This document shows positions 2 through 15,317 of a stretch of 15,317 nt of DNA, piece by piece. How positions within the stretch are numbered: position 1 is the stretch's first letter; the number at the start of each line of letters is the position of its first letter. The notes under the pieces were generated by a model. The model worked only from the letters and a program-made list of their open reading frames with translations. It was not told the DNA's origin and made no database searches. Origin of the DNA: a bacterium (GTDB lineage: Bacteria > Acidobacteriota > Blastocatellia > HR10). The DNA lies in the NCBI GenBank assembly GCA_041640655.1, contig JBEPZV010000056.1, forward strand, positions 1 through 15,317. Reading direction: 5' to 3'. The position numbers were made by a program, and so were the translations under genes.

Positions 2-154
2 GGCGCATCCTCGTTCGCCTCGCGCGTCGCGGGCGCGCGCCTGCGGTTGGCGGCGAGTATCGGCGAGTCGTTCTCCAATGGGCTGCTGCACATCCACCTG
101 GTGATCAAAGACCTGTCGGAGGCGCCCTTCGGAGGAGGCGATGAGATGGCGTGA
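2..154 (+). CDS. recJ: 3' end of an upstream gene, probably single-stranded-DNA exonuclease RecJ (C-terminal OB-fold); 5'-truncated by the window
   Basis: Frame 2 is open from the window edge to TGA at 152-154: [50 protein letters not shown]. The segment LAASIGESFSNGLLHIHLVIKDL resembles the RecJ C-terminal pattern (LAxxxxxNxWNGxxxLQLxIKDI), recalled rather than searched. It overlaps the next start by 14 nt. Only 50 codons are visible. Confidence 0.5.
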   Translation, partial: GASSFASRVAGARLRLAASIGESFSNGLLHIHLVIKDLSEAPFGGGDEMA

Positions 155-2384
155 GCCCACCTGGCCTCGGGTGACTCGCGCCCTGGCCGTCGCGCTCTTC
201 GTCGCGGTCGGCGCCACGCTCATTCTCTCCTCTCGCCAGCACCACGGCCTGCTTCGGCGGCGGAGCGAGGAAGCAGTGGGGGTGCGTCTCAATGCGCGTC
301 TGCTCTCGGTGAGTGAGAACATTCGTCACCTCCAAACTCAGGAAGGCCGTCCCATCTTTCTCCTCACGGCGGCGCGCGATGAGGCGTACGATGACGGGCA
401 TCACGAATTGAGCGATGTGAGCCTGACGCTTTATGCCCCTGACGGGGCGGAACGCGCGCGCATCACGGCTCGCCGCGCTGTCTATTATCAAACGACCGGG
501 CTCGTCATCTTCGCCACGGATGTCGTGGCGCGAACGCGCGAGGGCGTCTGCGTGCGCACCGATGAGGCGCGGTACGATCACGCGGCGGAGGTCTTGCGCA
601 CGGAGCGACCGGTCACTTTCGAACACGCCAGAGGATGGGGGGAGAGTCAGGGAGCGGAGATTCGCTTCGGGCGCGACCGGCGAGATCTCGTCCGGCTGCG
701 CGCGGTTCGCCTGACGGTCGCGCCGGAGACACCCGAACGGGCGTGGACCGCTCGGGCAGATTCGGCCTCTTTCGAGACCGCCACGCTCATGTTTCGACTC
801 GTCGGAACAGTCGTGATGACGCGCGGTGTGGAGGAGTTGCGCGCCGAGCGGCTCGAGGGCTCCCTCGATAGGGAACATCGGATCCGAGAGATCATGGCCG
901 AAGGGGACGTCCGTCTCCGCTCCCGCGATAATGCGGCGAGCAGCGAGATCACGAGCCATCGTCTTGCGCTCTCCTTCACGAGACGACGCGATCTGGCGCG
1001 CGCGATCGCGCTCGGATCGGTCGTCGCGCGTATGTGGAATCGGGCCGAGGAACACGAGGTGCACAGCCCTCGCCTGGAGATCGTCTTCGCGGAACAGCGG
1101 GGGAGGCTCATCCCTCGATCGGCATGGGCCGAGGGCGGGCGCGTGAACATCGTCATGCGGAGCACAGGACCTGAGCGGGCGCTCGCGGAGCGGCGCCTAG
1201 AGGCGAACCGCGTGGAGGCGATCTTCCGAACGAGGACCCGAGCGCTGCACCGCCTGCGCGCTTCGGGCGACGTTCGCCTGGAGATGCTCCCGACCGCTTC
1301 CGCGAGGGCCGCTGAGCGGAAGACGATCCTCGCGCACCAGATCGAGGTGGGGTTCGCGGCCGAACGCCTCCGGGCGACGGAGGCTCGCGCCGAAGGAGAC
1401 GTTCGCGTGGAGATCGAGCCGATGGCAGCACGCCCGAAGCGCGTGATGATGAGTCCCTCGTTGCTCGCCCAATTCGATCCGGAGACGCAGGAGATCACGC
1501 GCCTCCTTCACTCGGGGGGATTTCGCTACCTGGAGGGAGAGCGGGGCGCGCGGAGCGAGCGGGCGATCTACGAGGCCGATTCCGGATGGATTCGCCTGCG
1601 TGGAGGCGATCCGACTGTGTGGGATGCGCGCGGACGGACGCGCGCGGACGAGGTGGACGTGAACCCGCGAGAGGAACGGAGCGCGGCTCGCGGCCGCGTG
1701 CTGACGACCGCTCTCCCCCGCGAGGCGGGGGCCAGTGCGCTCCCCTTCGCCGCGCGCGACGCGCCCATCTTCATCGCGGCCGATCGCCTGGACGTTGATC
1801 ATCGCCAACGCCGCGCGCGCTACACAGGCGCGGTGCGCGCCTGGCAACAGGACACCTACCTCACGGCGGACGAACTGGAAGTGCGCGAGGCCGAGCGCGC
1901 GCTCACGGCGCGCGGGCAGGTCCGCTCGTTCCTCTTCCGCGCGCGCGCGGCGGAGACGCCTCAAGGAGAGACGATTCCCGTCGTCGTCTCGGCCGCGCGC
2001 CTGACGTATCGCGAAGCCGAGCGGAAGATCCTCTACGAGGGCGGCGCGCATCTGCGGCGCGGCGCGCAAGACCTCAGGGCCGAGTCGCTCGCGATCGTCC
2101 TCAAACCGGGTGTCGCGGAGATCGAGCGCGCTATCGCCGAGCGAAGCGTCACGCTCATGGATCCCGATCGCCGCGCGTACGCCGATCGCGCCGTGTACGA
2201 AGCCGGTGGAGAGCGAATCCTTCTTGAGGGCGCGCCCGCGCGCGTGGAGGATGATCGCCATCGCGTGCGTCAAGAGGGGGCTCGATTGACTTTCCTCGGG
2301 GGGAGTGATACAGTTGTGGTCGAGGATGGTGAAGGGGCGCGCCGGGTGAGGACCGTGAGGACGATTCCGAGGGGGCAACCGTGA
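141..2384 (+). CDS. lptC: Large LPS-export periplasmic protein: N-terminal TM anchor and LptC-like domain followed by multiple LptA/OstA-like beta-jellyroll repeats (747 aa)
   Basis: Strong RBS GGAGGAGG at 131-138. One N-terminal hydrophobic helix ([17 protein letters not shown]). LptC-like stretch ([12 protein letters not shown]...DVSLTLY...[10 protein letters not shown]...VRTDEARYD). Repeated AxGxV-type strands and an OstA-like C-terminus ([23 protein letters not shown]). The stop overlaps the lptB start (GTGA). Confidence 0.8.
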
Positions 2385-3184
2385 GCATGCTGATCACAGA
2401 GGCGAACGAGGCGGCACTCGGCCATGAGCCCTTGACCCGTCGCGCTCGGCTCCCTGTGGATGGAGCGGTCTTGCGCGCCTCCGGATTGACGAAATACTAT
2501 CGGGGGCGCTGTGTCCTCACCAACGTCTCCCTCGATGTGCATCCGGGAGAGATCGTCGGCCTGCTCGGTCCCAACGGAGCGGGAAAGACGACGACCTTCC
2601 ATCTGATCGTTGGGCTGGAGCGGCCCGATCGTGGCGCCGTCTTCCTCGATGGGCGCGAGATCACCGCCTTGCCCATGTATCTTCGAGCGCGGTGCGGCTT
2701 GGTCTACCTCCCGCAGGAGCCCTCGATCTTCCGTCGCTTGACAGTGGAGGAGAACATCCTCGCCATTTTGGAGCGGCGGAAGATGAGCCGCGCCGAGCGT
2801 CGGCGCCGACTCGAAGAGATTTTGGAGGAACTGGGGCTGGCCGCCGTGCGCCACGTCAAAGGCTACGCCCTCTCGGGGGGAGAGCGCCGGCGGACGGAGA
2901 TCGCGCGCGCGCTCGTCATGGAGCCGCGTTTCCTGCTTCTGGATGAACCGCTGACGGGGATTGATCCGCTGGCGGTCTTCGATCTGCAGCGTATCATCCT
3001 CGGGTTGAAGGCGCGAGGGATTGGGATCCTCATCACGGATCACAATGTGCGCGAGATGCTGCGCATCACCGATCGCGCCTATCTCCTCAGCGAGGGGCGG
3101 ATCTTCCGCGCCGGCACGCCGGAGACGCTGACGGCGGATCCGGAGGTGCGGCGTGTCTATTTGGGCGAACACTTCCAGCTTTGA
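2381..3184 (+). CDS. lptB: LPS export ABC transporter ATP-binding protein LptB
   Basis: Walker [11 protein letters not shown]-loop [12 protein letters not shown], signature LSGGERRR, Walker B LLLDEP, H-loop ITDHNVRE and the LptB-type C-terminus YLGEHFQL. Sits in the classic position just upstream of rpoN. The start could be GTG 2381 or ATG 2387. Confidence 0.95.
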
Positions 3185-3187
3185 GCT

Positions 3188-4663
3188 ATGCCGTCGGTCA
3201 AGATCGCGCCGGGACTGACGCAGCGTCTGACGCTGACGCCGCAGCTCAAGCAGCGCATTGATCTGCTGGCCATGACCAAGCTGGAGTTGCTCACCCTCAT
3301 TCGGCAAGAGCTGCGGGAGAATCCCGTGCTGGAGGAAGCGGTCGAGGTGGTTCCCTCGGCGGAGGCCGCGCTGCGCAACACTGAGCGCGAAGCGCGTGAG
3401 GAAGCCCATAGATCGTCCGAACCGGCGGAGCTGGAACCCAAGCCGCGAGATCCCTTCGAGGAAGTGGATTTCGAGGACTTCTTCCAGAACTATCTCGATC
3501 CGGCTCCGCGCACGACGTGGGCGGAGCCTCCGCCGGAGGAGGAGGTCTCGCTCCTGGAGAAGCTGACGCCGAGCCGTCCGTCCCTGTACGAGGCGCTGCT
3601 GGAGCAACTCCGCGTCATGGCCCCATCGGAGGATGAGGTGCGGCAAGCGGCAGAGGCGATCATCGGGTGTCTGAACAGCGACGGATATTTGGAGGCGACG
3701 CTGGAGGAGATCAAAGCCCTCGGGGGATGGTCCGACGAGGTCGTCGAGCGCGCGCTGGCGCTCGTGCAGAGCCTGGATCCGCCGGGCATCGGCGCGCGCG
3801 ATCTGCGCGAGTGTCTGCTGTTGCAGCTTCGCGCGCGGGGATGGGAGGATCGGCTGGCGGCGCGTCTGGTGCGCGATCATCTGTGGGATTTGCACCCGCA
3901 TCGGCTCCCGGAACTGGCCGAACGCCTCGGCCTCCCGCTGCAGACGGTGCGCGAGGAGGTGGAGGTGATCCGGCAATTGGACCCGCGTCCGGGACGGAAT
4001 CTCGGAGCCGCGCCGCCGATGTACATCGTGCCCGAGGCGAGCATCGTGAAGGTGGACGATCGCTACGTCATCCTCTTCAACGACGAGGGCCTGCCGCACC
4101 TGCGGATCAACCCCTACTATCGGCGCCTCCTCAAGAGCGGGCAGCTCCCGAAAGAGGCGCGGGATTTCGTGCGGGAGCGATTCCGCTCGGCCGTCGAGCT
4201 GCTGAAGAACATCGAGCATCGCCGCCGGGCGATCTACCGCGTCTGCGAGGCCATCGTCCGGCGACAGCGCGACTTCCTCGACTATGGCCCCGAATATCTG
4301 AAGCCGATGCTGCTCAAAGACATCGCGGCCGAGCTGGGCCTCTCGCTCTCGACCGTCAGCCGCATCGTGAGCAACAAGTACATTGACACCCCTCAGGGGC
4401 TCATCGAACTGCGCCGTTTCTTCACCGAAGGGGTGAGGAAGGAGAACGGCGAGCAGATCTCCACGCGCGTCCTCAAGCTGCGCCTTCAAAAGCTCATCGA
4501 GCAGGAGGATCCCCGAGCGCCGCTGACGGACGATGATCTGGTGCGCTTGCTGGAGCGCGAGGGCATCCGGCTCTCGCGCCGCACGGTGACGAAGTATCGG
4601 AAGCAGCTGGGGATTCCCAGCTCGCGGGATCGCGCGCTACTTCATGCGGGGAGGGGAGGATGA
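3188..4663 (+). CDS. rpoN: RNA polymerase sigma-54 factor RpoN
   Basis: Region I QRLTLTPQLKQRIDLL...ENPVLE, core-binding LDPPGIGARDLRECLLLQL, HTH LKPMLLKDIAAELGLSLSTVSR and RpoN box SRRTVTKYRKQLGIPSS. Confidence 0.98.
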   Translation: MPSVKIAPGLTQRLTLTPQLKQRIDLLAMTKLELLTLIRQELRENPVLEEAVEVVPSAEAALRNTEREAREEAHRSSEPAELEPKPRDPFEEVDFEDFFQNYLDPAPRTTWAEPPPEEEVSLLEKLTPSRPSLYEALLEQLRVMAPSEDEVRQAAEAIIGCLNSDGYLEATLEEIKALGGWSDEVVERALALVQSLDPPGIGARDLRECLLLQLRARGWEDRLAARLVRDHLWDLHPHRLPELAERLGLPLQTVREEVEVIRQLDPRPGRNLGAAPPMYIVPEASIVKVDDRYVILFNDEGLPHLRINPYYRRLLKSGQLPKEARDFVRERFRSAVELLKNIEHRRRAIYRVCEAIVRRQRDFLDYGPEYLKPMLLKDIAAELGLSLSTVSRIVSNKYIDTPQGLIELRRFFTEGVRKENGEQISTRVLKLRLQKLIEQEDPRAPLTDDDLVRLLEREGIRLSRRTVTKYRKQLGIPSSRDRALLHAGRGG

Positions 4664-5175
4664 ATCTGGAATTCACGACGCGAAATGTGGCGCTGACGCC
4701 CACGATCGAGAAGCGCCTTCGGCGGGCCCTGGAGAAGATCGGCCGCGTCCTCGATGACGCGGCCAAGGTGCACGTCATCCTCGCTGCTGAGAAGCATCGG
4801 TTCCTGACGGAGATCCTCGTCACCTGGCGGGATCATCAGTTCACAGGGACGGCCGAGACGGACGACCTCTACAGCTCGGTCACCGAGGCCATTGATCGCC
4901 TCCTGCGACAGACACTCAAGCAGAAGGAGAAGTTCGCGGCCCGCCGGCGGGCGACGCGCAAGCTCGTGAAGACGCTGCCCGCGGAATCTCCGGCGCCGGA
5001 GGTGCGCATCGTGCGCACGCCCCGATATTCGGTGAAGCCCTTGACGCCGGATGAGGCGGCCGAGCTGCTCTTGAAATCGAATGATCACTTCCTCGTCTTC
5101 CGCAATGCGGAGACCGATCGGGTGGCCGTCCTCTACAAGCGCACCGATGGTCACCTCGGACTCATCGAACCCTGA
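4660..5175 (+). CDS. hpf: Ribosome hibernation promoting factor, long form (HPF/RaiA family, sigma-54 modulation protein) with C-terminal dimerisation domain
   Basis: N-terminal HPF domain (DDLYSSVTEAIDRLLRQ..KQKEK) and C-terminal domain (VKPLTPDEAA..L....HFLVFRNAETDRVAVLYKRTDGHLGLIEP). ATGA overlap with the rpoN stop; RBS GAGGGGAGG. Confidence 0.93.
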   Translation: MNLEFTTRNVALTPTIEKRLRRALEKIGRVLDDAAKVHVILAAEKHRFLTEILVTWRDHQFTGTAETDDLYSSVTEAIDRLLRQTLKQKEKFAARRRATRKLVKTLPAESPAPEVRIVRTPRYSVKPLTPDEAAELLLKSNDHFLVFRNAETDRVAVLYKRTDGHLGLIEP

Positions 5176-5182
5176 GGGCGCG

Positions 5183-6145
5183 ATGACCGCTCCCCTCACG
5201 CCCGAGATCACCGTCGCCGAGCTGCTCACCGGCGCGCCGGCCGATCTGGACTTGCGCGTGATCGTCGGCGCTGAGGGGGTGACCAGGACGATCCGCTCGC
5301 CGCGCATTCAAAAGCTCGGGCTGGCGCTGGCGGGATTCACGCATTATGTGCACGCGGGGCGCATCCAAATCGTGGGGCAGAGCGAGGTGACTTTCCTGCA
5401 CCATCTCTCGCCGCCGGAGCGACACCGCGCCATCGAGCGCCTCCCCTGGGAGGCGATCACGTGCGTCCTCGTGACCAAGGGGCTCACTCCCCCGCCGGAA
5501 TTCCTTCACGCGGCCGAGCAGCATCGCGTTCCGGTCCTGGTCTCCTCGCGCCTCAGCTCGACAGCGATCCTGAAGCTCACGGAGTTTCTGCAGCGGATTC
5601 TCGCCCCTCGCCGCTGGATTCACGGCGTCCTGGTCGAAGTCTTCGGCATCGGCGTGCTGTTGCTCGGCGAATCCGGACTGGGCAAGAGCGAATGCGCGCT
5701 CGATCTCATTCAGCGCGGGCATCGGCTCGTCGCCGATGATGTCGTCGAGGTGCGCGCCATCGGATCGGATCGGTTGATCGGCCTGGCCCCGGAACGCGCG
5801 CGGGGGCACATGGAGATCCGGGGGCTCGGCATCTTGGACATTCGAGAATTGTTCGGCGTCGCGGCGCTCGCCGAAGAAGCCTCAGTGGATCTGGCCATCG
5901 CGTTTGAGCGCTGGGATCCGCAGCGAGAATACGACCATCTGGGTCTGCAGGAGGAGACGCTCCGTCTGCTGGACATCTCGATCCCCCTGATTCGCCTTCC
6001 CGTCACGTTCTGGCGCAATCTCACGACGCTCGTCGAGGTGGCCGTGCGCAATCATCTCCTGAAACGCCGGGGCATTGATGCGATGCGGCAGTTCGTGCGC
6101 GCGCACGATGCGCTGGTCGCCGGGGACGCGCTCGAATCCTCGTGA
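5183..6145 (+). CDS. hprK: HPr(Ser) kinase/phosphorylase HprK (about 320 aa; start reassigned to ATG 5183)
   Basis: RIQKLGLALAGF N-domain, HGVLVEVFGIGVLLLGESGLGKSECALDLIQRGHRLVADD (Walker A) and the HMEIRGLGIL signature. ATG 5183 lies 7 nt after the hpf stop; the ORF-track start at 5081 lies inside hpf. Confidence 0.95.
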   Translation: MTAPLTPEITVAELLTGAPADLDLRVIVGAEGVTRTIRSPRIQKLGLALAGFTHYVHAGRIQIVGQSEVTFLHHLSPPERHRAIERLPWEAITCVLVTKGLTPPPEFLHAAEQHRVPVLVSSRLSSTAILKLTEFLQRILAPRRWIHGVLVEVFGIGVLLLGESGLGKSECALDLIQRGHRLVADDVVEVRAIGSDRLIGLAPERARGHMEIRGLGILDIRELFGVAALAEEASVDLAIAFERWDPQREYDHLGLQEETLRLLDISIPLIRLPVTFWRNLTTLVEVAVRNHLLKRRGIDAMRQFVRAHDALVAGDALESS

Positions 6146-6148
6146 CGC

Positions 6149-7024
6149 ATGGCTTCCGCTTCCCCTCACATCCTCATCCTCACGGGCCTGAGCGGTTCGG
6201 GGAAGACCTCGGCGGTCAAGGCCTTCGAGGACCTCGGGTATTTCTGCGTGGACAATCTGCCGATTCACCTGATCCCCCCCTTCGTGGAATTGTGTCGCGC
6301 CAGTGCGGAGACGCTCCGTCGCGCCGTCATCGTCATTGACATTCGCGAGCGCCAGTTCCTCCCCGATTTCCCGCGCCTCTACGACGAGTTGCGGCGGCAA
6401 GGGACCAACGTGCGGATCATCTTCTTCGAGGCGAGTCCCGAGGTCCTGTTGCGCCGTTTCTCCGAGACGCGACGTCCGCATCCGTTGGCCGACGCCGAGA
6501 CGGACCTGCCCACGGCCATCGCGCGCGAACGGGAGGCGCTGCAAGAGATCCGCGCTCGCGCCGACCTCATCATTGACACGTCCGAGCACACGGTACACAC
6601 GCTGCGCCGCTACGTGATCGAGCGCTTCGGCACCGCTGATGCGCTGCTGGAGATGACGGTCACGCTCCTCAGCTTCGGGTTCAAGCATGGCGTTCCTCCA
6701 GGATTGGATCTGCTCTTTGATGTCCGCTTCCTGCCGAACCCGCACTTTGTCCCTGAGCTGCGCCCGCTCTCGGGACAAGATGCGCGCGTCATTGACTTCA
6801 TGCGCGCGCACCCGGATACGATGGAGACCATCGCGCACTTGGAGAACCTCCTTCGATTCCTCCTGCCGCGCTACCAGCGCGAGGGACGAAGCTATGTGAC
6901 GATCGGGATCGGCTGCACGGGAGGACGCCATCGTTCGGTGATGATCGTCGAGGAGCTGGCGCGCGTGCTGCGACGCGAGGGCTATAAGCTTCGCGTCACG
7001 CATCGGGATATAGACAAACTCTGA
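6149..7024 (+). CDS. rapZ: RNase adapter RapZ / YvcJ-family P-loop nucleotide-binding protein
   Basis: LTGLSGSGKT, FEDLGYFCVDNLP, RRFSETRRPHPL, SFGFKHG, FDVRFLPNPH and IGIGCTGGRHRSV are all hallmark RapZ motifs. Confidence 0.96.
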   Translation: MASASPHILILTGLSGSGKTSAVKAFEDLGYFCVDNLPIHLIPPFVELCRASAETLRRAVIVIDIRERQFLPDFPRLYDELRRQGTNVRIIFFEASPEVLLRRFSETRRPHPLADAETDLPTAIAREREALQEIRARADLIIDTSEHTVHTLRRYVIERFGTADALLEMTVTLLSFGFKHGVPPGLDLLFDVRFLPNPHFVPELRPLSGQDARVIDFMRAHPDTMETIAHLENLLRFLLPRYQREGRSYVTIGIGCTGGRHRSVMIVEELARVLRREGYKLRVTHRDIDKL

Positions 7025-7044
7025 GCACACGGCAACTCTCGATG

Positions 7045-7074
7045 AGGACACGAGCCGACGCCCTGGGGTACAAT
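7045..7074 (+). promoter_or_regulatory. Possible internal sigma-70-type promoter for the EIIA-HPr-EI genes
   Basis: TACAAT at 7069-7074 in a short AT-rich patch, with AGGACA (4/6 match to TTGACA) at 7045-7050 and an 18-nt spacer. It lies in the only sizeable gap (136 nt) of the housekeeping cluster. Confidence 0.4.
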
Positions 7075-7160
7075 AAAAGAGCATGGAAGGCACCTGAGAT
7101 CGAGCGCACGCGTCGGGGAGGCGAGCGGTTCGCCGCTTCGCCGACGCCGGAGGAAGAGGG

Positions 7161-7574
7161 ATGGGACTCATCGGAGGCGTCGTCATCACGCACGGACAAC
7201 TGGCCACGGAGCTGGTGAACGCCGCTGAGATGATCGTCGGTCAGATCGACCACATCACGGCCGTCTCCATCGGCTGGCACGATGATGTGGAGGTCGCGCG
7301 CGAGACGATCCGTCGGGCCATCGAGCGGGTCAATAGCGGGCGCGGCGTGCTGTTGCTGACGGATATGTTCGGGGGAACGCCGACCAACATCGCGGCCACC
7401 TTCCTGGGCGTCGAGCCGGTGGAGATCGTCACCGGCGTCAATCTGCCCATGATTCTCAAGCTCGCCAATCAAGACCCGAACGACGATCTGCTCACCGTCG
7501 CGCGCAAGGTCAAAGAACAAGGGCAGAAGAACATCTATTTGGCCAGCGAGATCCTCACGCCCACGAAGCGATAG
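7161..7574 (+). CDS. PTS EIIA component, mannose/fructose/sorbose family (stand-alone)
   Basis: GVVITHGQLA (phospho-His), GVLLLTDMFGGTPTN and EIVTGVNLPMILK motifs; RBS GGAGGA at 7149-7154. Confidence 0.93.
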   Translation: MGLIGGVVITHGQLATELVNAAEMIVGQIDHITAVSIGWHDDVEVARETIRRAIERVNSGRGVLLLTDMFGGTPTNIAATFLGVEPVEIVTGVNLPMILKLANQDPNDDLLTVARKVKEQGQKNIYLASEILTPTKR

Positions 7575-7580
7575 CCGGCG

Positions 7581-7871
7581 ATGCAGCGACGAACGGTGCA
7601 GGTGACCAACCGTCTGGGATTGCACGCGCGCGCCGCCGCCAAGCTCGTGCAGGCGGCCAATCGGTTTCGCAGCGCGATCACGCTCGCCCGCTCCGATACG
7701 GGACAGACGGCGGACGCCAAGAGCATCCTCGGCGTCCTGCTGCTGGCGGCATCGGCGGGGACGCATCTGGACATCACCACATCCGGAGAGGACGAGGTGG
7801 AAGCGATCGAGGCCATCTGCCGGTTGATCGAGTCGAAATTTGGTGAAGAGGAGGAGCGATTGGGATCGTGA
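7581..7871 (+). CDS. ptsH: Phosphocarrier protein HPr
   Basis: NRLGLHARAAAKLV (His15) and ADAKSILGVLLL (regulatory Ser46, the HprK target); C-terminal GEDEVEAIEAI..LIESKFGEE. Confidence 0.95.
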   Translation: MQRRTVQVTNRLGLHARAAAKLVQAANRFRSAITLARSDTGQTADAKSILGVLLLAASAGTHLDITTSGEDEVEAIEAICRLIESKFGEEEERLGS

Positions 7872-9715
7872 CGGCGAATTCGGAGATCGTGCTCCGCGGA
7901 CTGGGCATCTCGCCGGGGATCGGGTGGGGACCGGCCGTGCACTCGCCTTGGCGCGGGCGAGTGATCTTCCGCCGGCGACTCGCTCCTCAGGAGATCGAGC
8001 CCGAGGTGGCCCGGTTCCACAGGGCCGTGGGCATCGCGCGCGAGCAACTGCGCGTCCTGCGGCAGCGCATGGAGCACGCCCTGGGGAAAGAGCACGCCTA
8101 TATCCTGGATGCGCACGTGCTGATGCTGGAGGACGCGGGGATTCTCGGGGAGATTGAGACCCTCATCCGCACCAACGCCGTCAACGCCGAATGGGCGGTG
8201 AAGCTGGTCACCGATCGCATCCTGGCCATCTATGCGGAGATCAAGGACGATGATCTGCGCGAGCGTGGCAGCGACATCGAGGATGTGGCGAACCGATTGC
8301 TCAGGGTGCTCTCGGGAGATCGCTCCACCTGCGCCCTTCCGGAGGGCGCAGTTCTGGTGAGCGAGACGCTCCCGCCAAGCCTGCTTGGGGAACTCGATCC
8401 GCAGCGCATCGCGGGCTTGATCCTCGGCACAGGGGGATGGACGTCGCATGTGGCCATTCTCGCCCGTGGGCTGGGCATCCCGGCCGTATCGGGTCTTCGT
8501 GGGGCGCTCGCGCAGATCGAAGATCAAGCACTCGTCCTCGTGGATGGGACGCGAGGGCTCGTCCTCGTCCGTCCTTCCCCGGACACCCTTCAGCGTTACG
8601 AACGGCAGCGCCAGGAGCGCGAACGGCATTGGATCCGTTGGCAGGCGCGCGCCCCTCTCCCCACGACGACGCGCGACGGCGTCCCGATCACCATCCGCGC
8701 GAACATCGAACGCCTCTCCGAATTGGAGGACCTGCGCCGTTTCGGTGCATGCGGGATTGGCTTGCTCCGCACGGAATTCCTCTTCCTGCAGGCGGCTCCG
8801 GAGCTGCCCTCGGAAGAGATGCAACTGGAGGCGTACCGTCAGGCCGCGGAGGTGGCCGGGCACGAGGGGGCCGCCATTCGCACGGTGGATTGGGACGAAA
8901 ATCAGATGGCCGCGCTCGGCACCCTTCACGCGCTGCGTGACCGGCAGACGGAACCCGCGTCTTCGGAGCCGTGGTCCCCCGAGCGGAATCCGGCGCTCGG
9001 GCTCCGCGCCATTCGTTTCTCGCTGCGCGCGCCGGAAGTCCTCAAAACCCAATTGCGCGCCCTCGTGCGGGCCGCCGCCTTCGGGAATCTGCGCATCGTC
9101 CTCCCCCTGATCACGAGTTTGGAGGAAGTCGAGCAAGTCCGGTGCCTGCTTCAGACCGCGTGCCATGAACTGCGCGCAGAAGGGATCGCCATACCGGATC
9201 GTCTTCCCGTGGGCGTGATGATCGAGACACCTGCTGCCGTCTGGCTCGCCGATGAGCTGGCTGCCGTGGCGGATTTCCTCAGCCTGGGGACCAACGATCT
9301 CATCCAGTACCTCCTGGCGGTGGATCGGGATAACGATCGCGTGGCCTCGCTCTATGATCCACTGCATCCGGCCGTGCTGCGCGCTCTGCAGCACGTGATC
9401 CAGGCGGCCGAGCGCGCGGGCCGTCCCCTTGAAGTCTGCGGCGAGATGGCCGCGCATCCCCTGCATGCGCTGGTCCTGCTGGGTTTGGGAGCCCGTATCC
9501 TGAGCATGCGCCCGCGCGCGATCCCACTCATCAAGGACTTCGTGCGCGCGTGCGAGCTGACGCGCGTGCGCGAGATCGTTCGCACGGCGCTCGCCGCCTC
9601 ACGTTCTGCCGAAGTACGTGAGCTTTTGCTCGGAAGCCTCCACGAGCTCCGACTGGAGCTCCCCGACGACGTGCTCCTGAACGGGAGCGCGCCTCCTGTC
9701 CGAGAAGTCTCGTAA
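7868..9715 (+). CDS. ptsI: PEP-protein phosphotransferase (PTS Enzyme I), no N-terminal GAF domain
   Basis: GLGISPGIGWG start, GGWTSHVAILAR (phospho-His), GIGLLRTEFLF, ERNPALGLRAIR, GVMIETPAA, FLSLGTNDLIQY and VCGEMAA. The GTG start overlaps the HPr stop (GTGA). Confidence 0.96.
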   Translation: MTANSEIVLRGLGISPGIGWGPAVHSPWRGRVIFRRRLAPQEIEPEVARFHRAVGIAREQLRVLRQRMEHALGKEHAYILDAHVLMLEDAGILGEIETLIRTNAVNAEWAVKLVTDRILAIYAEIKDDDLRERGSDIEDVANRLLRVLSGDRSTCALPEGAVLVSETLPPSLLGELDPQRIAGLILGTGGWTSHVAILARGLGIPAVSGLRGALAQIEDQALVLVDGTRGLVLVRPSPDTLQRYERQRQERERHWIRWQARAPLPTTTRDGVPITIRANIERLSELEDLRRFGACGIGLLRTEFLFLQAAPELPSEEMQLEAYRQAAEVAGHEGAAIRTVDWDENQMAALGTLHALRDRQTEPASSEPWSPERNPALGLRAIRFSLRAPEVLKTQLRALVRAAAFGNLRIVLPLITSLEEVEQVRCLLQTACHELRAEGIAIPDRLPVGVMIETPAAVWLADELAAVADFLSLGTNDLIQYLLAVDRDNDRVASLYDPLHPAVLRALQHVIQAAERAGRPLEVCGEMAAHPLHALVLLGLGARILSMRPRAIPLIKDFVRACELTRVREIVRTALAASRSAEVRELLLGSLHELRLELPDDVLLNGSAPPVREVS

Positions 9716-9927: not shown

Positions 9928-10731
9928 TCACGGATGCGGCGCGTGGCACTGCGTGCAGTTCATCTTGGCCTTCACGTTGTCCAGCCCCTTATCCCCGTGA
10001 CACCCGAGGCAGGTCGCGATGGACTCCGGTGGGACGTAGATGCTCTGGAATTGGCCATCAGCCCATTGATTCAATAGCTCCACGGCGCGAGCGGCGACAT
10101 CACCTGTGAGCCTGCCGCAGCGTTCTTTGCGTTCAAGCGAAGAGGCCCTGAATCCCGAATGCTCGCACCACAAGGTCACCGAGATATGACACAGGGGTGA
10201 GCCCGCGGCATTTTGTGGGAGCGGTCGCGTGTACTTCTGGACGAAGAACTGCCCCGTCTGCGCGTACTCGTTGCTGATGTCCGTCGGCAGGAGCGCTTGC
10301 GTGTACCACCCCTGCAATTCATGGATGAGCCGATCGGCCGTCGGCTTATCGCATACGAGCTGAATCGCGGCGCAGGCTCCAAGGAGCGCCCCACACGTCC
10401 CGCCCCATCCGACGACTCCCCCGTGCCCCCAGATCATGAGCTCAGGGGGGATCATCGTGTAGGGATACCCGACCGCCTCGCGCAATGGGATGATGATGGC
10501 CCTGAAAGCGCCATAGGCGCAGCCGTATCCTTTCTCCCAATACCCCTCGTGCCCGAGCTTGCGCACGTACTCAGGATCAAGCTTTCGGTAAGGCCACGGC
10601 CACGGCGGAAGCTCCATCTGGGCGATCCCTTCCCTTCCGATGAGGCTCAGCCCAGCTGCACCGACGGCGGCGCATGTGGCGCATTTGGTCGTCAACGTGA
10701 GGAACTCTTTTCGCGTCAGCTTCTTCCTCAT
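9928..10731 (-). CDS. Exported split-Soret cytochrome c-like / C_GCAxxG_C_C-family redox protein with two C-terminal CxxCH haem motifs
   Basis: Tat-like leader LTRKEFL plus a hydrophobic stretch. Family motifs PWPYRKLDP, GYGCAYGAF, GGVVGWGGTCGALLG, SPLCHISV and RKERCGRLTGDVA. C-terminal CLGCH and CTQCH. RBS GGAGG 8 nt upstream. Confidence 0.85.
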   Translation of the reverse strand: MRKKLTRKEFLTLTTKCATCAAVGAAGLSLIGREGIAQMELPPWPWPYRKLDPEYVRKLGHEGYWEKGYGCAYGAFRAIIIPLREAVGYPYTMIPPELMIWGHGGVVGWGGTCGALLGACAAIQLVCDKPTADRLIHELQGWYTQALLPTDISNEYAQTGQFFVQKYTRPLPQNAAGSPLCHISVTLWCEHSGFRASSLERKERCGRLTGDVAARAVELLNQWADGQFQSIYVPPESIATCLGCHGDKGLDNVKAKMNCTQCHAPHP

Positions 10732-10777
10732 TGCTCATCCCTCCGTGATGAGATCGGTATTTCCGCCTTCTACTTCG

Positions 10778-10793
10778 TGCAAGCGGCATGCCA
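10778..10793 (-). promoter_or_regulatory. Sigma-54 (-24/-12) promoter for the split-Soret-like cytochrome gene
   Basis: The minus strand reads TGGCATGCCGCTTGCA, i.e. TGGCAY-N5-TTGCW with exact GG-N10-GC spacing, about 47 nt upstream of the ATG. Confidence 0.8.
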
Positions 10794-10845
10794 CAAGCAG
10801 GGACATTGATTCTCCTGAAGTTAGATCGGGAGGGAGTGCCCCGTG

Positions 10846-10862
10846 CGTTGAAGAATTCAACG
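10846..10862. promoter_or_regulatory. Palindromic operator / candidate enhancer (UAS) site, copy 1
   Basis: CGTTGAA-GAA-TTCAACG, a perfect 7-3-7 inverted repeat, with an identical copy at 10935-10951. Confidence 0.7.
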
Positions 10863-10867
10863 ATAGG

Positions 10868-10884
10868 TGCTGAATTCCTCAACA
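10868..10884. promoter_or_regulatory. Degenerate, inverted copy of the palindromic operator (copy 2)
   Basis: The reverse complement TGTTGAGGAATTCAGCA matches CGTTGAAGAATTCAACG at 13/17. Its centre is 22 bp (about two helical turns) from copy 1. Confidence 0.55.
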
Positions 10885-10934
10885 GGACTAAGCGCGCGAT
10901 GCGCTGAGACTTGCCCCACATGCTCTCCGGCTCG

Positions 10935-10951
10935 CGTTGAAGAATTCAACG
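10935..10951. promoter_or_regulatory. Palindromic operator / candidate enhancer (UAS) site, copy 3
   Basis: CGTTGAAGAATTCAACG, identical to copy 1 (18 nt identical including the preceding G). Confidence 0.7.
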
Positions 10952-11041
10952 GACGCAGCGCGAGAGGGCCGCTCCACAGATCAGAGCGTGCGCATGTTCT
11001 TCGGATCGAACGACTTCCCCGCCGTCGGAGAGGACATCGTG

Positions 11042-11057
11042 CGGCACGCCGATTGCC
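11042..11057 (+). promoter_or_regulatory. Sigma-54 (-24/-12) promoter for the GcvH-like gene pair
   Basis: CGGCACGCCGATTGCC, i.e. YGGCAC-N5-TTGC with exact GG-N10-GC spacing, followed by RBS GAGGGAGGG (11072-11080) and ATG 11084. Confidence 0.7.
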
Positions 11058-11083
11058 CTAAAGGAAGAACTGAGGGAGGGACG

Positions 11084-12016
11084 ATGAACGAGGTGCGGTC
11101 GAGAGAACCGATCGAGGTCACCGGCCCTGGAGCTGGTCCGCGCTCCATCGAGCGTGAGGGTGCCGCTCCTGCGCTCCGGTGCGTGTGGATGTTGGCAGGG
11201 ATTGTGGACTACAAGCTGTGCGACCGCGACTACGAATGTGACCGTTGCCCTTTTGACCGTGCCCTTCGGGAGCGGACGAGGGAGATCGCCGGTGAGGAGG
11301 GAAACTCACGATCTCACGGTGAGCGCACGGCGCCTCACCACCTCTTCGCCCGATGGGGCTTCCACATGGCGGAGGCGCTCTTCTACCATCCGACGCATTT
11401 ATGGGCGCGCATCGAGCGGCGGGGGGACGTGCGAATCGGACTGGACGATTTCGGACAGAGGCTCCTCGGGCGGATCTATCAGGTGAGCTTTCCGGAAGTG
11501 GGCGCGCGCGTGATCGCCGGACACCCGCTGGGCAAGCTGGTGCATCAGGCCGGGGAGATCGTTCTGTCCGCCCCCCTGACGGGGATCATCCTTCAGCTCA
11601 ACGAGCGGCTCACGCGATACCCCTCCCTCATCAATCACGATCCGTATGGAGAGGGATGGTTGCTGCTGTTGCGACCGGAACGCTTGCGGGAGAGCTTGAA
11701 GCACCTGCTCTATGGGGAGCAGGCACGTTCCTGGTATGAGCGGGAGATTTTGAAGCTGCACCGAGCGGTTCGCGCGGCCATGCGCGCTTTGGGGACGCCC
11801 CCGGAAGTCCCGGCAGCAGGCCGCACGCTCCAAGATGGGGGCGTTCCCCTTGAAGGGGAGCGTACAGCGCACGAGATGCTGCCGCTGGCCGCGATGGGAC
11901 CGCTCATGGAATTCCTCGGTCCCGCGCGATGGGAACAGGTGATCGCGCGGTTCTTACAGCCACGGATCGGGCGCACGGCGAGTGCGCCCCGAAGGAAATC
12001 TTCGAAAGGGAGGTGA
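11084..12016 (+). CDS. GcvH (glycine cleavage H-protein)-fold protein with an N-terminal Cys-rich motif; lipoyl-lysine absent (about 310 aa; start reassigned to ATG 11084)
   Basis: H-protein fold motifs FYHPTHLWAR, VRIGLDDFGQRLLG, FPEVGA, LSAPLTG, LNERL and INHDPYGEGWL. N-terminal CVWMLAGIVDYKLCDRDYECDRCPFD. There is a good RBS at 11072-11080, whereas the ORF-track TTG start at 10937 lies inside the operator palindrome. Confidence 0.82.
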   Translation: MNEVRSREPIEVTGPGAGPRSIEREGAAPALRCVWMLAGIVDYKLCDRDYECDRCPFDRALRERTREIAGEEGNSRSHGERTAPHHLFARWGFHMAEALFYHPTHLWARIERRGDVRIGLDDFGQRLLGRIYQVSFPEVGARVIAGHPLGKLVHQAGEIVLSAPLTGIILQLNERLTRYPSLINHDPYGEGWLLLLRPERLRESLKHLLYGEQARSWYEREILKLHRAVRAAMRALGTPPEVPAAGRTLQDGGVPLEGERTAHEMLPLAAMGPLMEFLGPARWEQVIARFLQPRIGRTASAPRRKSSKGR

Positions 12017-12019
12017 ACA

Positions 12020-12712
12020 ATGGTCGCTCTCTTTGTCATTCTCACGATCATCGGATTCATCCTCGTGGATTCCGTCGTCCAATGGGCTGAGGCCCGACGC
12101 GGACGCCCTGTGAGGCGACCGGCGCTGCGTCCGACGCTCGCCTTCGAGACCGTCTCCATCCCTGCCGGCCTCTTCCTGGACGAAGGACACACGTGGGTGC
12201 GCCTGGAACCGAGCGGACGGACATTCATCGGCATGGATGAGTTCGTGCGTCGAGCCATCGGGCGCGTGGACGCCGTGGAATTGCCGAAAGTCGGCGCCAT
12301 GGTGCGACGGGGCGATCCGCTCTTCGCCATCACGCAGGGGGGCCGACGGGCCGTCTTCCGCGCCCCGCTCGATGGGGTGGTGAGTGCGGTCAATGAGAAC
12401 CTCATGCGCCATCCGGAGACGGGGCGAATGGATCCGTATGAGGATGGATGGATCTGCACGCTGACGCCGAAGAACCTGGCGGCGCACTTACGCCATCTGC
12501 TGGTCGCCGAGGAAGCGCGGGCGTGGCTCCAGGGCGAGATCGAACGCTTCAAGGAGTTCCTCACGTGGCGGCCGATGCCGCAGGCAGCTCTCGGACACGT
12601 CCTGCAGGACGGCGGGCAGTGGACCGATGGCGTCCTGGAGGCTCTGGATGAAACCCGTTGGGAGGAGTTCACCCGAACATTCCTGCGCAGCCCGCATCCA
12701 GCCGAGGGATGA
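12020..12712 (+). CDS. Second GcvH-fold protein with an N-terminal transmembrane helix; lipoyl-lysine absent
   Basis: MVALFVILTIIGFILVDSVV hydrophobic anchor. Fold motifs FLDEGHTWVR, IGMDEF, LPKVGA, FRAPLDGVVSAVNE and DPYEDGWI. It starts 3 nt after its paralogue's stop, with RBS GGAGG. Confidence 0.82.
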   Translation: MVALFVILTIIGFILVDSVVQWAEARRGRPVRRPALRPTLAFETVSIPAGLFLDEGHTWVRLEPSGRTFIGMDEFVRRAIGRVDAVELPKVGAMVRRGDPLFAITQGGRRAVFRAPLDGVVSAVNENLMRHPETGRMDPYEDGWICTLTPKNLAAHLRHLLVAEEARAWLQGEIERFKEFLTWRPMPQAALGHVLQDGGQWTDGVLEALDETRWEEFTRTFLRSPHPAEG

Positions 12713-12929
12713 GGCGAGCGAAGGAAGGCGCGTTTCCGCCGGCTCTCGCTCTGCGGGGATCGAAGCCTCATCGGATGCGCGAATCGCGCCTCCGGAAGCG
12801 AGTGATTTGCCCCACCCCTCTCTCGCGCGCGTAGCGGCGAGGGGTGAGGCGGGGAAAGCCCCCACCGTAAGTGCTTGACCTGACGGCTCTCGGCAGCCGA
12901 CTGCTGGAGGCGACCTCACGATCTCTGTG

Positions 12930-12945
12930 TGGAATGGGAATTGCA
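12930..12945 (+). promoter_or_regulatory. Probable sigma-54 (-24/-12) promoter for the Fe-S / NrfD-family genes
   Basis: TGGAATGGGAATTGCA has exact GG-N10-GC spacing and TTGCA at -12, with one deviation in the -24 element (GGAA for GGCA). RBS GGAGGA at 12958-12963 and ATG at 12969 follow. Confidence 0.6.
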
Positions 12946-12968
12946 TCACTTCATAATGGAGGACGCGT

Positions 12969-13808
12969 ATGGGCAGCAAAAAGGGCCTCCTCTTTGACGC
13001 GACCCTGTGCATCGGCTGCGGCGCCTGCTACCAGGCGTGCAAGGAGCGCAATCGGCTCCCCCCGACGGCGACGCACTTTTTGGAGGATCGGCTGTCGGAC
13101 CAAACCTACACGGTCGTGAAGAAACGTGGGGGACGATTCGTCCGCCAGCTCTGCATGCACTGCGAGGTCCCGACGTGCGCGTCCGTCTGTCCGGTCGGCG
13201 CGTTGGAGAAGACGGTTGCCGGCCCGGTCATCTATCACGAAGAGCGGTGCATCGGATGCCGCTACTGCATGTTGGCATGTCCCTTCGGGATCCCGAAGTA
13301 TGAGTGGCGGAAGATCCTGCCGCGCGTCCGAAAGTGCGATCTGTGTGCCGATCGCCTCGCGGTAGGGCGACCGACGGCTTGCGCCGAAGTCTGCCCCACG
13401 GGAGCGACGAAGTTCGGGGATCGTCAGGAGCTGATCGAGGAAGCCCGCGCGCGACTCCGCGCTCACCCGCAGAAGTACGTGCCGAGAATTTACGGCCTGG
13501 AGGAAGTCGGCGGAACGTCGGTCCTGTTGCTCTCGGATGTCCCGTTCGAGCGCCTGGGCTACCGAACGGATCTGCTTCGGGAGCCGCTCCCCCTGCTGAC
13601 GTGGCAGGTCCTGCAGAAGATCCCCAACTTCGTCATCGTCGGGGGCGTTCTGCTCGGGGGCATCTGGTGGATCACCAATCGGCGCCAGGAGGTGCAACGC
13701 CGAGAGCGCCAGGAGCGAAACCGACGACGAGACATCGAAGAACCGTTGCGCGATCTCCCGGAGCCATCAGGATCACCCCCGACGCCTGACTCGACGGATT
13801 CGTCATGA
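12969..13808 (+). CDS. 4x[4Fe-4S] electron-transfer subunit, HybA/FdnH/HmcB-like, with a C-terminal TM helix and no signal peptide
   Basis: Four cluster motifs: CIGCGACYQAC, CMHCEVPTCASVCP, CIGCRYCMLACP and KCDLC...ACAEVCP. Also IYGLEEVGGTSVL and a C-terminal hydrophobic helix IPNFVIVGGVLLGGIWWI. Confidence 0.9.
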   Translation: MGSKKGLLFDATLCIGCGACYQACKERNRLPPTATHFLEDRLSDQTYTVVKKRGGRFVRQLCMHCEVPTCASVCPVGALEKTVAGPVIYHEERCIGCRYCMLACPFGIPKYEWRKILPRVRKCDLCADRLAVGRPTACAEVCPTGATKFGDRQELIEEARARLRAHPQKYVPRIYGLEEVGGTSVLLLSDVPFERLGYRTDLLREPLPLLTWQVLQKIPNFVIVGGVLLGGIWWITNRRQEVQRRERQERNRRRDIEEPLRDLPEPSGSPPTPDSTDSS

Positions 13809-13887
13809 CGGCTCAACCCAAAAGAAGATCCGGCTTCCTCGCGCACGTCAACCGCTCGACAGATACGGTCCGGCGAAGGAGGGATGT

Positions 13888-15317
13888 ATGAGGTGGAGCA
13901 TTCGGCGGCCCGGTTTTTGGCAACTTGTGTTTCTGGTCATCTTGGGCTCCGGCCTCTACAGCACGGTCGTCCGGTTCACTGGAGGATTGGGGGCGAGCAC
14001 GGCCTTGAGCGATGCCTTCCCATGGGGCTTGTGGGTGGGCTTTGACGTCCTCTGTGGGGTCGCGCTGGCCGCCGGAGGATTCACCATCAGCGCCGTCGTC
14101 TACATCTTCAACATCGAGCGATTTCGACCGATCATTCGCCCGACGATCCTCACGGCCTTCCTCGGATACCTACTGGTTATCGTGGCCCTGCTCTTCGATC
14201 TGGGGCGCCCCTATCGCATCTGGCATCCGCTGGTCATGTGGAACCCCCATTCGGTGATGTTCGAGGTGGCCTGGTGCGTCATGCTCTACACCACAGTGCT
14301 CGCGCTGGAATTCAGCCCGATGGTCTTCGAACGCTTGAGGCTCCACAGACCGCTTCGGATCCTGCACGCGCTGACGGTGCCGTTGGTCATTCTCGGCGTC
14401 ATCCTCTCGACGCTCCATCAATCCTCGCTCGGCTCGCTCTATCTGATCGTGCCGGAGAAGCTGCATCCGCTCTGGTACTCGCCGCTTCTGCCCGTCCTCT
14501 TCTTCATCTCGGCCATCGCGCTCGGGTGCGCGATGACCATCTTCGAGTCGTTCCTGAGCTACCGGGCGTTCCGGAAACGACTGGAGATTGATCTGCTCAC
14601 CGATCTGGGCAAGGTGATCGTCGTCGCGCTGGCCGTGTATCTGGTGCTGAAGGTTCAGGATTTGGCCGGGCGCAATGCGCTCACTCGCGTCTTCGAGCCG
14701 ACATACGAGGCGCGGATGTTCCTGGCCGAGATGATGCTCGGCGTGATCGGTCCCATGCTGTTGCTGAGCGTGCGCCGCATTCGGACGGATCATTTCGGTT
14801 TGTTCGTCTCCGCCCTTCTGGTCGTCCTGGGCTTCATCATGAACCGGTTGAATGTGAGCATCACGGGGATGGAGGCCTCCTCCGGCGTCTCGTACTTTCC
14901 GAGCTGGACCGAGCTTTCGGTGACCTTCATGATCGTAGCACTGGGATTCGCCCTGTTCGGGTTGGCGGTGAAATATCTGCCCGTCTTTCCGGAGATGGAG
15001 CGGGAGGTCGCAGTCCCACCGGCCGTCGCCGTTCTCCGAAGACCGTGGATCGGGACGACACCTCTGATCCTGATCCTCGGCGGAATCGTCTTCTTCGGCG
15101 CCCTCGGCGTGGCCTACAGCGGCCTGTCCTATCGCGAGCGGGCTCTCGCCGCCCCGCCTCGCCTCGAAGAAGAAGAGCCGGACATTGCCGAAGGACTGGA
15201 GCGCTTGAACATCCCACCGGACGTCACGTTCCCGCAGGGGGAGGGGAGCCCGGGGCCGGTCACGTTCCGACATGCTTCGCACATCAACTGGGAGCGACCG
15301 GACTGCACCGTGTGTCA
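13888..15317 (+). CDS. hybB: NrfD/PsrC-family integral membrane subunit (HybB/HmcC-like) with a C-terminal extra TM helix and the start of a c-type cytochrome domain; 3'-truncated by the window
   Basis: Not in the ORF track because it has no stop in the window. Manual translation from ATG 13888 (RBS AAGGAGGG) is open for 476 codons: MRWSIRRPGFWQLVFLVIL...LSDAFPWGLWVGFDVLCGVALAAGGF...DLGRPYRIWHP..MWNPHSVMFEVAWCVMLYTTVLALEF...LSTLHQSSLGSLYLIVPEKLHPLWYSP...NRLNV...YFPSWTE...KYLPVFPE, then TM PLILILGGIVFFGALGVAYSGL and ...SPGPVTFRHASHINWERPDCTVC(H/Q). Confidence 0.88.
   Translation, partial: MRWSIRRPGFWQLVFLVILGSGLYSTVVRFTGGLGASTALSDAFPWGLWVGFDVLCGVALAAGGFTISAVVYIFNIERFRPIIRPTILTAFLGYLLVIVALLFDLGRPYRIWHPLVMWNPHSVMFEVAWCVMLYTTVLALEFSPMVFERLRLHRPLRILHALTVPLVILGVILSTLHQSSLGSLYLIVPEKLHPLWYSPLLPVLFFISAIALGCAMTIFESFLSYRAFRKRLEIDLLTDLGKVIVVALAVYLVLKVQDLAGRNALTRVFEPTYEARMFLAEMMLGVIGPMLLLSVRRIRTDHFGLFVSALLVVLGFIMNRLNVSITGMEASSGVSYFPSWTELSVTFMIVALGFALFGLAVKYLPVFPEMEREVAVPPAVAVLRRPWIGTTPLILILGGIVFFGALGVAYSGLSYRERALAAPPRLEEEEPDIAEGLERLNIPPDVTFPQGEGSPGPVTFRHASHINWERPDCTVC

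Follow-up and report, generated by a model that had tools for sequence, protein, structure and literature searches.

A gene cassette that places glycine cleavage H protein (GcvH) folds lacking the lipoyl lysine beside an iron-sulfur (FeS) protein, an NrfD-type membrane protein and a histidine kinase with haem motifs was delineated from a 15,317-nucleotide stretch of acidobacterial DNA (Blastocatellia, HR10; GenBank assembly GCA_041640655.1, contig JBEPZV010000056.1), hereafter the window, which is the complete contig C56. A first-pass annotation of the sequence had described five genes at 9928–15317 as a redox module under sigma-54 control in three transcription units; all five genes and the three -24/-12 elements were found in place, the elements being conserved in relatives and enriched over shuffled sequence. 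The conserved core consists of the GcvH-fold protein, the FeS protein, NrfD and the kinase; the split-Soret cytochrome-like gene and the rpoN neighbourhood are lineage-specific extras. Judged from sequence, there is about an even chance that the FeS/NrfD/cytochrome part is a periplasmic cytochrome c:quinone oxidoreductase of the Hmc/Nhc/HybAB type under its own phospho-control, with the GcvH folds serving as cytoplasmic signalling adaptors and not as carriers of electrons or lipoate. The features concerned are given below.

9928–10731, minus strand: split-Soret-cytochrome-like gene with a leader resembling those for twin-arginine translocation (Tat), a C_GCAxxG_C_C domain and two CxxCH motifs; lineage-specific
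10778–10794, minus strand: sigma-54 -24/-12 element of the split-Soret-like gene (score and conservation)
10847–10861, unstranded: palindrome GTTGA-N5-TCAAC, copy 1, perfect, conserved, joint top matrix score; likely enhancer
10869–10883, unstranded: palindrome copy 2, two mismatches here, near-perfect in relatives
10936–10950, unstranded: palindrome copy 3, perfect, conserved (matrix scan)
11041–11057, plus strand: sigma-54 -24/-12 element of the GcvH-fold pair (score and conservation)
11084–12016, plus strand: soluble protein of the GcvH fold without lipoyl lysine or transmembrane (TM) segment; four-Cys motif at the N-terminus, QDGG extension at the C-terminus
12020–12712, plus strand: membrane-anchored (tethered) GcvH-fold protein with one N-terminal helix and a QDGG extension; no lipoyl lysine
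12800–12815, plus strand: conserved G/C-rich box about 130 bp 5' of the third promoter, a possible second activator site
12868–12878: IHF-like site preceding the third promoter, by resemblance to the IHF consensus
12929–12945, plus strand: sigma-54 -24/-12 element for FeS-NrfD-kinase-regulator-protease (score and conservation)
12969–13808, plus strand: HybA/HmcB-like protein for four [4Fe-4S] clusters; membrane tail at the C-terminus, export signal absent from the N-terminus
13888–15317, plus strand: HybB/HmcC-type NrfD (10 predicted helices and a linker helix) that runs on into a c7-type trihaem cytochrome; truncated where the contig stops

Composition and conservation of the cassette

Among named records, the closest homologues of the window's genome are from Blastocatellia. 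The window ends inside the NrfD gene, at the first CxxC of the cytochrome tail. In a same-genus relative that provides the full-length form (L021), NrfD carries a trihaem c7 tail. Genes for a histidine kinase, a sigma-54 response regulator and an M54 archaemetzincin come next there, and the archaemetzincin scored 175 bits with NF033823 (cut-off, 145). Contig C69 of the window's genome opens with the C-terminal two thirds of the regulator (98% identical to the relative) and the protease (94%), colinear with L021, which leaves an assembly gap of about 2.3 kb that includes the kinase. What continues the cassette is therefore kinase, regulator and protease, and neither a Hyb hydrogenase nor a formate dehydrogenase operon, which the first-pass annotation had named as an outcome that would count against a distinct module. 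Its statement that the window holds no gcvT/gcvP, hydrogenase or molybdoenzyme gene was borne out and extends to C69; the genome's own gcvTHP lies on C24. A NiFe large subunit was not found in this genome (90% complete), and its two exported-type molybdoenzymes each have FeS subunits of their own.

Conservation was surveyed at 67 loci, many of them truncated, that were retrieved by a scan with an alignment of the tethered GcvH-fold protein. FeS was present in 51 of these, NrfD in 47, kinase and regulator in 39 each, protease in 36 and the split-Soret gene in 5. Among the 35 loci of at least 18 kb, FeS and NrfD were each present in 27, and kinase, sigma-54 regulator and protease in 29 each, with the split-Soret gene in 4; one additional locus, L095, carries FeS/NrfD in frameshifted pieces. 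A sample of 251 Acidobacteriota genomes contained 61 with the tethered gene, and a second sample of 20 loci from 19 of those 61, picked for contig size and family spread, contained FeS plus NrfD in 16, kinase in 13, regulator and protease in 11 each and the split-Soret gene in none. Over the 87 loci combined, a hydrogenase large subunit occurred in 4, a molybdoenzyme in 2 (both without FeS/NrfD) and GcvT/P in 0. The cassette is present also in records labelled Myxococcota, Calditrichota, Eisenbacteria and Gemmatimonadota. One locus labelled Clostridia (L035) has an FeS protein that nests among Blastocatellia-type sequences and is likely a mislabel.

These counts uphold the co-occurrence that had been predicted for the GcvH-like genes with a HybAB-type pair and with an NtrC-family two-component system. 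The kinase, which the earlier description had missed, is as constant a partner as FeS/NrfD, and both of its haem motifs (CxxCH and Cx4CH) were present in 34/34 and 14/14 copies; its constancy suggests a signalling role for the GcvH folds. Two other elements of that description fell away. The split-Soret cytochrome, counted there as a member of the module, was found in 5/67 and 0/20 loci and in 6/36 genomes and does not belong to the core. The position beside the operon encoding sigma-54 was rejected as meaningful, as lptC-rpoN-PTS neighbours (PTS, phosphotransferase system) accompany the cassette in 5 of 67 loci, all close kin. In the window these neighbours form a lptC-lptB-rpoN-hpf-hprK-rapZ-PTS-like run at 141–9715, ahead of the five genes; rpoN and enzyme I were identified by Pfam, and the remaining names are putative. 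A comparison of distance matrices over 36 loci gave r values of 0.65 for GcvH-kinase versus 0.59 for GcvH-NrfD; the rows are related and family f37 fell below threshold, and the result was not counted as evidence.

Other genes lie close to the cassette. On C69, a pentahaem cytochrome gene (1657–2475) is convergent with the protease and is kept nearby in several same-genus loci, which makes it a possible electron partner. A HypA-like gene follows the protease in close relatives (L023:9632–10015 and L028:8011–8376), including genomes in which no NiFe large subunit was found. Large clusters of multihaem, Rieske/cytochrome b and barrel-like genes flank the cassette on the same strand in L040, L043, L049, L058, L061 and L063, and a NiFe hydrogenase lies 3' of it in L058 and L063.

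GcvH-fold proteins and their fusions

Both GcvH-fold proteins match Pfam GCV_H (PF01597) and score below the cut-offs of TIGR00527 (71 and 67 bits; cut-off, 115.85) and NF045810 (GcvH_rel_desulf; 31 and 26.7 bits; cut-off, 150). Structure models gave the H-protein fold for both, with a root mean square deviation of 1.4 Å to 1ONL and a Z score of 17.9 to 1DXM. At the position of the lipoyl Lys64 of the genome's own GcvH, the soluble protein has Ala156 and the tethered protein Gly108, and none of 120 homologues of the soluble protein carries a lysine there. The two proteins are paralogues with a common QDGG helical extension (probability 100), whose motif is kept in 119/120 and 115/120 homologues. 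The four-Cys motif of the soluble protein is found in 107 of 120 homologues; the Cys-rich N-terminus was not folded by the model (predicted local distance difference test score below 50), and atlas look-ups returned one weak unnamed match (0.75) for this domain and only GCV_H clusters for the tethered protein. In 118 of 119 tethered proteins, more Lys and Arg residues follow the anchor than precede it, so the GcvH domain behind this single N-terminal helix is predicted to be cytoplasmic.

Fusions indicate what the fold may do. Family f37 is among those with a receiver domain placed between helix and GcvH fold, as Pfam confirmed for 2 of 2 proteins tested. Twelve further loci were fetched for the match pattern of this fusion, and hence are no random sample; L103 and L104 were added. 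All 12 f37 loci (of 18 positive genomes) carry an operon of leaderless FeS protein, NrfD, kinase and TM-receiver-GcvH protein, so that the fusion stands beside the same kinase; no sigma-54 activator, protease or multihaem cytochrome was found within 8–10 kb in any of the 12. All 14 TM-receiver-GcvH fusions examined keep an intact phospho-acceptor motif but lack the QDGG loop. A domain resembling periplasmic binding proteins precedes the helix of the tethered fold in 9 of 150 representatives; Pfam detects it in 1 of the 9, a profile of all nine matches a phosphate-binding protein (E value, 4e-6), and the source names agree. Receiver and binding-protein fusions alike point to signalling. The earlier suggestion that repurposed GcvH folds have a non-enzymatic role is supported.

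Several further architectures were observed. A family of about 560 amino acids (P0342, P0344, P0347, P0357, P0365, P0369, P0375, P0388, P0389 and P0391–P0395) combines a phosphate-binding-protein-like domain, one helix and a lysine-less GcvH fold with QDGG, and is a candidate one-component sensor. In a single case (L085:9821–10831), a tethered GcvH-fold protein is joined via a second helix to a trihaem c7, giving a cytoplasmic fold and a periplasmic cytochrome in one chain. Protein P0276 (1391 amino acids) joins three GCV_H domains, an FAD-linked oxidase and CCG/FeS domains in one chain. At L071:7279–7512 and 10 similar Myxococcota-type loci, an unannotated four-Cys protein of about 75 amino acids, with no Pfam match, is encoded 5' of a Tat-bearing FeS gene; it may take the place of the soluble protein's Cys domain. 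On the strand opposite the f37 operon, neighbours are lipoate-related, encoding lipoyl synthase or 2-oxoacid dehydrogenase E1 (L103:11531–12427, L140:7334–8218, L139:9143–11278 and L141:2259–3215); the synthase of L103 scores above the cut-off, and that of L140 was assigned via a look-alike N-terminus. Although curious for a lipoyl-carrier fold, this is probably chance. Two apparent fusions were not used: the GcvH-kinase fusion of L047, whose junction suggests that FeS, NrfD and the sensor domain were deleted, and the Cys-GcvH/TM-GcvH fusion of L048, a single case in a long-read-like assembly.

Control region, FeS/NrfD pair and readings of the cassette

The three -24/-12-like sites, in the order of their positions, scored 11, 10 and 11 of 14 against the sigma-54 consensus. 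By itself such a score is weak, as any 15 kb should contain about 1.9 sites scoring at least 11. The sites are, however, conserved, with GG and TTGC kept in 6/6 and 8/8 aligned sequences. Among upstream regions, scores of at least 11 were reached in 15 of 27 for the Cys-type GcvH gene (shuffles, 0.7%), in 8 of 46 for the FeS gene (shuffles, 1.6%) and in 4 of 5 for the split-Soret-like gene, and internal genes were at background (NrfD 1/43, kinase 1/35, regulator 0/35, protease 1/34). A scan for sigma-70 promoters and terminators gave background only.

Three copies of GTTGA-N5-TCAAC lie between the divergent promoters. Two of them are perfect; the 3.1-Mb genome has no other perfect copy, and these two rank top in a matrix scan trained on other loci. 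A relaxed form, GTTG-N7-CAAC, was found 5' of cassette genes in 19 of the 42 loci that have the regulator versus 2 of the 32 that lack it, counts that include kin and thus loci that are not independent. The matrix scan found no distant regulon in the window's genome, where strong copies map to this locus only; in five other genomes, single palindromes were near control counts and paired copies occurred at the locus only. The G/C-rich box is kept in 8 aligned sequences (weakly in the farthest) and has no second exact copy in the genome. With a conserved -24/-12 element, an upstream palindrome and a cognate activator gene, the features of a promoter driven by sigma-54 and a bacterial enhancer-binding protein are present at the level of sequence, and the palindrome is likely the regulator's enhancer, and the regulon is probably local.

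NrfD is 35% identical to Escherichia coli HybB, and the FeS protein is 38% identical to HybA. The best NCBIfam matches were HmcB (257 bits; cut-off, 420) and HmcC (349 bits; cut-off, 550), and no solved relative of NrfD was found by profile search. The FeS protein has 16 invariant Cys residues and is of the four-cluster HybA type with a C-terminal tail. Eight HybB positions were examined (D58, R89, Y99, D109, E133, H184, E228 and R329) and were kept in 21 to 23 of 23 rows; the role of E228 is presumed by us. For most of these positions, roles in the quinone site or the proton path are described in PMC8076601 and PMC13059093.

The FeS protein starts 13 residues before its first Cys, and an in-frame TAA at 12954, 15 nucleotides upstream, precedes it. 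Among 58 FeS proteins examined (L075, cut by a contig end, was dropped), 41 are leaderless and 17 have a leader. A tree of 45 rows sets the 30 complete leaderless proteins apart from all others by a branch with 100/100 support (midpoint root; long branches meet there). The positive-inside pattern of the C-terminal tail is kept in 36 of 41 leaderless copies and predicts that the FeS domain lies outside, and the c7 fusion fixes the orientation of NrfD as normal. TatC is present. The window's FeS subunit has neither a Tat nor a Sec signal even though its tail predicts a periplasmic location, and the periplasmic conduit proposed in the first-pass annotation is thus left with no export route; sigma-54 control and the lack of a catalytic subunit agree with that proposal, and this gap, which it had missed, is the main weakness of a conduit model. 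A twin-arginine motif at the NrfD N-terminus was rejected, as the RR spacing is not conserved.

The split-Soret-like protein aligns over residues 44–264 with split-Soret cytochrome c (1H21, the nearest solved structure; E value, 3e-44), including the C_GCAxxG_C_C cysteines and both C-terminal CxxCH motifs, and scores 191.5 bits with NF047622 (cut-off, 400). With its Tat-like leader and the same enhancer, it could be the carrier of the FeS subunit in this lineage only. Split-Soret mutants are reported without a fitness phenotype in PMC4215793.

Taken as an oxidoreductase under its own phospho-control, the cassette would operate as follows. The periplasmic haem domain of the kinase would read a redox or ligand signal and phosphorylate the NtrC-type regulator, which would bind GTTGA-N5-TCAAC and fire the divergent sigma-54 promoters of the split-Soret-like gene and the GcvH pair. 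The third promoter would drive FeS, NrfD-c7, kinase, regulator and archaemetzincin, so that the loop would be autoregulatory. From the cytoplasm, the tethered GcvH-fold protein would adjust how FeS/NrfD works or is assembled; in f37 it would act directly, via its fused receiver domain. Only tentatively do we extend this to three stronger propositions: that the two haems of a sensor kinase are coupled to an NrfD/FeS quinone module, that a lysine-less lipoyl-carrier fold is a receiver output domain directly switching a membrane complex, and that the FeS protein is placed without a signal peptide or a Tat-bearing operon partner. An FeS protein at its site without either would imply an undescribed export route or a cytoplasm-facing partner of NrfD.

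Several observations weigh against phospho-control of a periplasmic oxidoreductase. The lipoyl position is not always free of lysine: 8 of 120 tethered homologues have one there, as do 13 of 150 distant representatives (4 of these 150 did not align), in no case within an ESVK context. GcvH, kinase, regulator and protease occur without FeS/NrfD in L042 and L102, GcvH and FeS/NrfD without a nearby kinase in L067, L100, L101, L106 and L110, and the tethered protein alone in at least L065, L066, L091 and L107–L109; the GcvH-fold protein is therefore strictly bound to neither the redox nor the kinase part. With no multihaem cytochrome nearby, the f37 module has no encoded electron partner except the kinase haem domain. 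An upstream in-frame RRxF was absent in 41/41 leaderless FeS copies, and two general Tat carriers of the FeS subunit were rejected: the split-Soret protein, confined to the 6 of 36 genomes noted above, and NiFe hydrogenase, whose periplasmic-type small subunit was found in 13 of 36 genomes and 0 of 7 of this family (many incomplete). Finally, the enhancer control was not clean, as a reversed motif was positive in 7 of 42 loci, probably from tandem copies.

In a different account, possible if rather doubtful, the cassette is a sensing device: NrfD and FeS would sample the quinone pool and pass electrons, via c7 where present, to the two kinase haems and on to the sigma-54 regulator or to receiver-GcvH signalling. 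The minimal f37 operon, with neither a multihaem cytochrome nor a sigma-54 activator, is its best support, together with the invariance of both kinase haem motifs and the position of the kinase gene directly 3' of NrfD in most leaderless-type loci. A device of this kind accords poorly with the loci that have kinase without FeS/NrfD or, in five cases, the reverse; no distant output was found, because strong enhancer copies map to the locus only, the retained proton-path residues fit turnover, and multihaem clusters flank six loci. In another explanation, which we consider unlikely, the GcvH folds, with the archaemetzincin, would be biogenesis factors that chaperone or deliver the signal-less FeS subunit or hold it on the cytoplasmic face. 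The leaderless proteins are one side of a single strongly supported branch, their genes usually lie directly 3' of the tethered GcvH gene, TatC is present, and close relatives have the HypA-like gene after the protease. However, GcvH-fold genes accompany Tat-bearing FeS subunits too, neither GcvH-fold protein shows a twin-arginine leader, receiver and binding-protein fusions suit signalling better than chaperoning, and the positive-inside tail argues against a cytoplasmic FeS domain.

We regard as very unlikely that the pair is an ordinary spare HybAB/HmcBC anchor for a Tat-exported hydrogenase or molybdoenzyme encoded elsewhere, which would also carry the FeS protein out, the GcvH folds being incidental. 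A precedent exists in PMC10924467, namely one leaderless tail-anchored FeS/HybB-like pair, the single such case there, beside a Tat-bearing [FeFe] hydrogenase, and a hydrogenase lies near the cassette in L058, L063, L085, L088 and L145. Nonetheless, the periplasmic-type NiFe small subunit is absent from all 7 family genomes and from 23 of 36 overall, as far as incomplete metagenome-assembled genomes can tell; both exported-type molybdoenzymes of the window's genome have their own FeS subunits; and GcvH, kinase and protease are retained with the FeS/NrfD pair across phyla.

Relation to known systems

The database names "glycine cleavage H protein" and "hydrogenase subunit" that such genes receive inflate predictions of glycine cleavage and hydrogen oxidation. 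Should phospho-control of an oxidoreductase prove true, the cassette would enlarge the set of receiver output domains and provide an NrfD module under phospho-control. Its leaderless tail-anchored FeS protein challenges the rule that proteins of this kind need a Tat signal, be it their own or that of a partner in the operon. With only four genes, the short version could be expressed and tested as a unit. Full-text searches of open-access PubMed Central and bioRxiv returned no description of GcvH-fold proteins with NrfD modules, haem kinases or archaemetzincins; subscription papers and supplements lie outside that scope, and Table S3 of PMC10924467 could list such loci.

Among characterised relatives, HybA/HybB of E. 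coli hydrogenase-2 share with the cassette the four-cluster FeS protein with a C-terminal tail and the residues of the quinone site and proton path. HybA has a twin-arginine leader, whereas the cassette FeS protein has none; the cassette differs further in that no HybO/HybC was found in the operon or in the genome at its stated completeness, and in its NrfD-c7 fusion and its own kinase, regulator, protease and GcvH folds. HmcBC and NhcBC of Desulfovibrio likewise combine a cytochrome c, an FeS protein and NrfD without a catalytic subunit, but the cassette has no 16- or 9-haem cytochrome and no HmcE/HmcF, and adds a trihaem c7 fusion, a leaderless FeS protein and GcvH-fold and signalling genes. 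Also related are the stand-alone modules that PMC10924467 describes as a Tat-bearing tail-anchored ferredoxin, a HybB-like quinol oxidase and a c-type cytochrome, unlinked to hydrogenase and without conserved flanking genes. The three-part core is shared; the cassette differs in having a leaderless FeS protein without a hydrogenase partner of the kind in the single leaderless case there, and strongly conserved flanks.

The split-Soret-like protein is homologous to split-Soret cytochrome c of Desulfovibrio desulfuricans, falls below the equivalog cut-off, and shares this enhancer in one acidobacterial lineage only. With GcvH and GcvH-L, the cassette proteins have the fold in common and not the lipoyl lysine, the ESVK motif or the T and P partners; they add an anchor or a four-Cys domain and the QDGG helical extension, and the fold also occurs as the putative output domain of receivers. 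The FeS/NrfD/cytochrome core is published, and the GcvH/kinase/protease layer was not found in the open-access literature searched. Overall, the cassette adds to a redox core of known kind a layer of regulation that is real and conserved and seems not to have been described.

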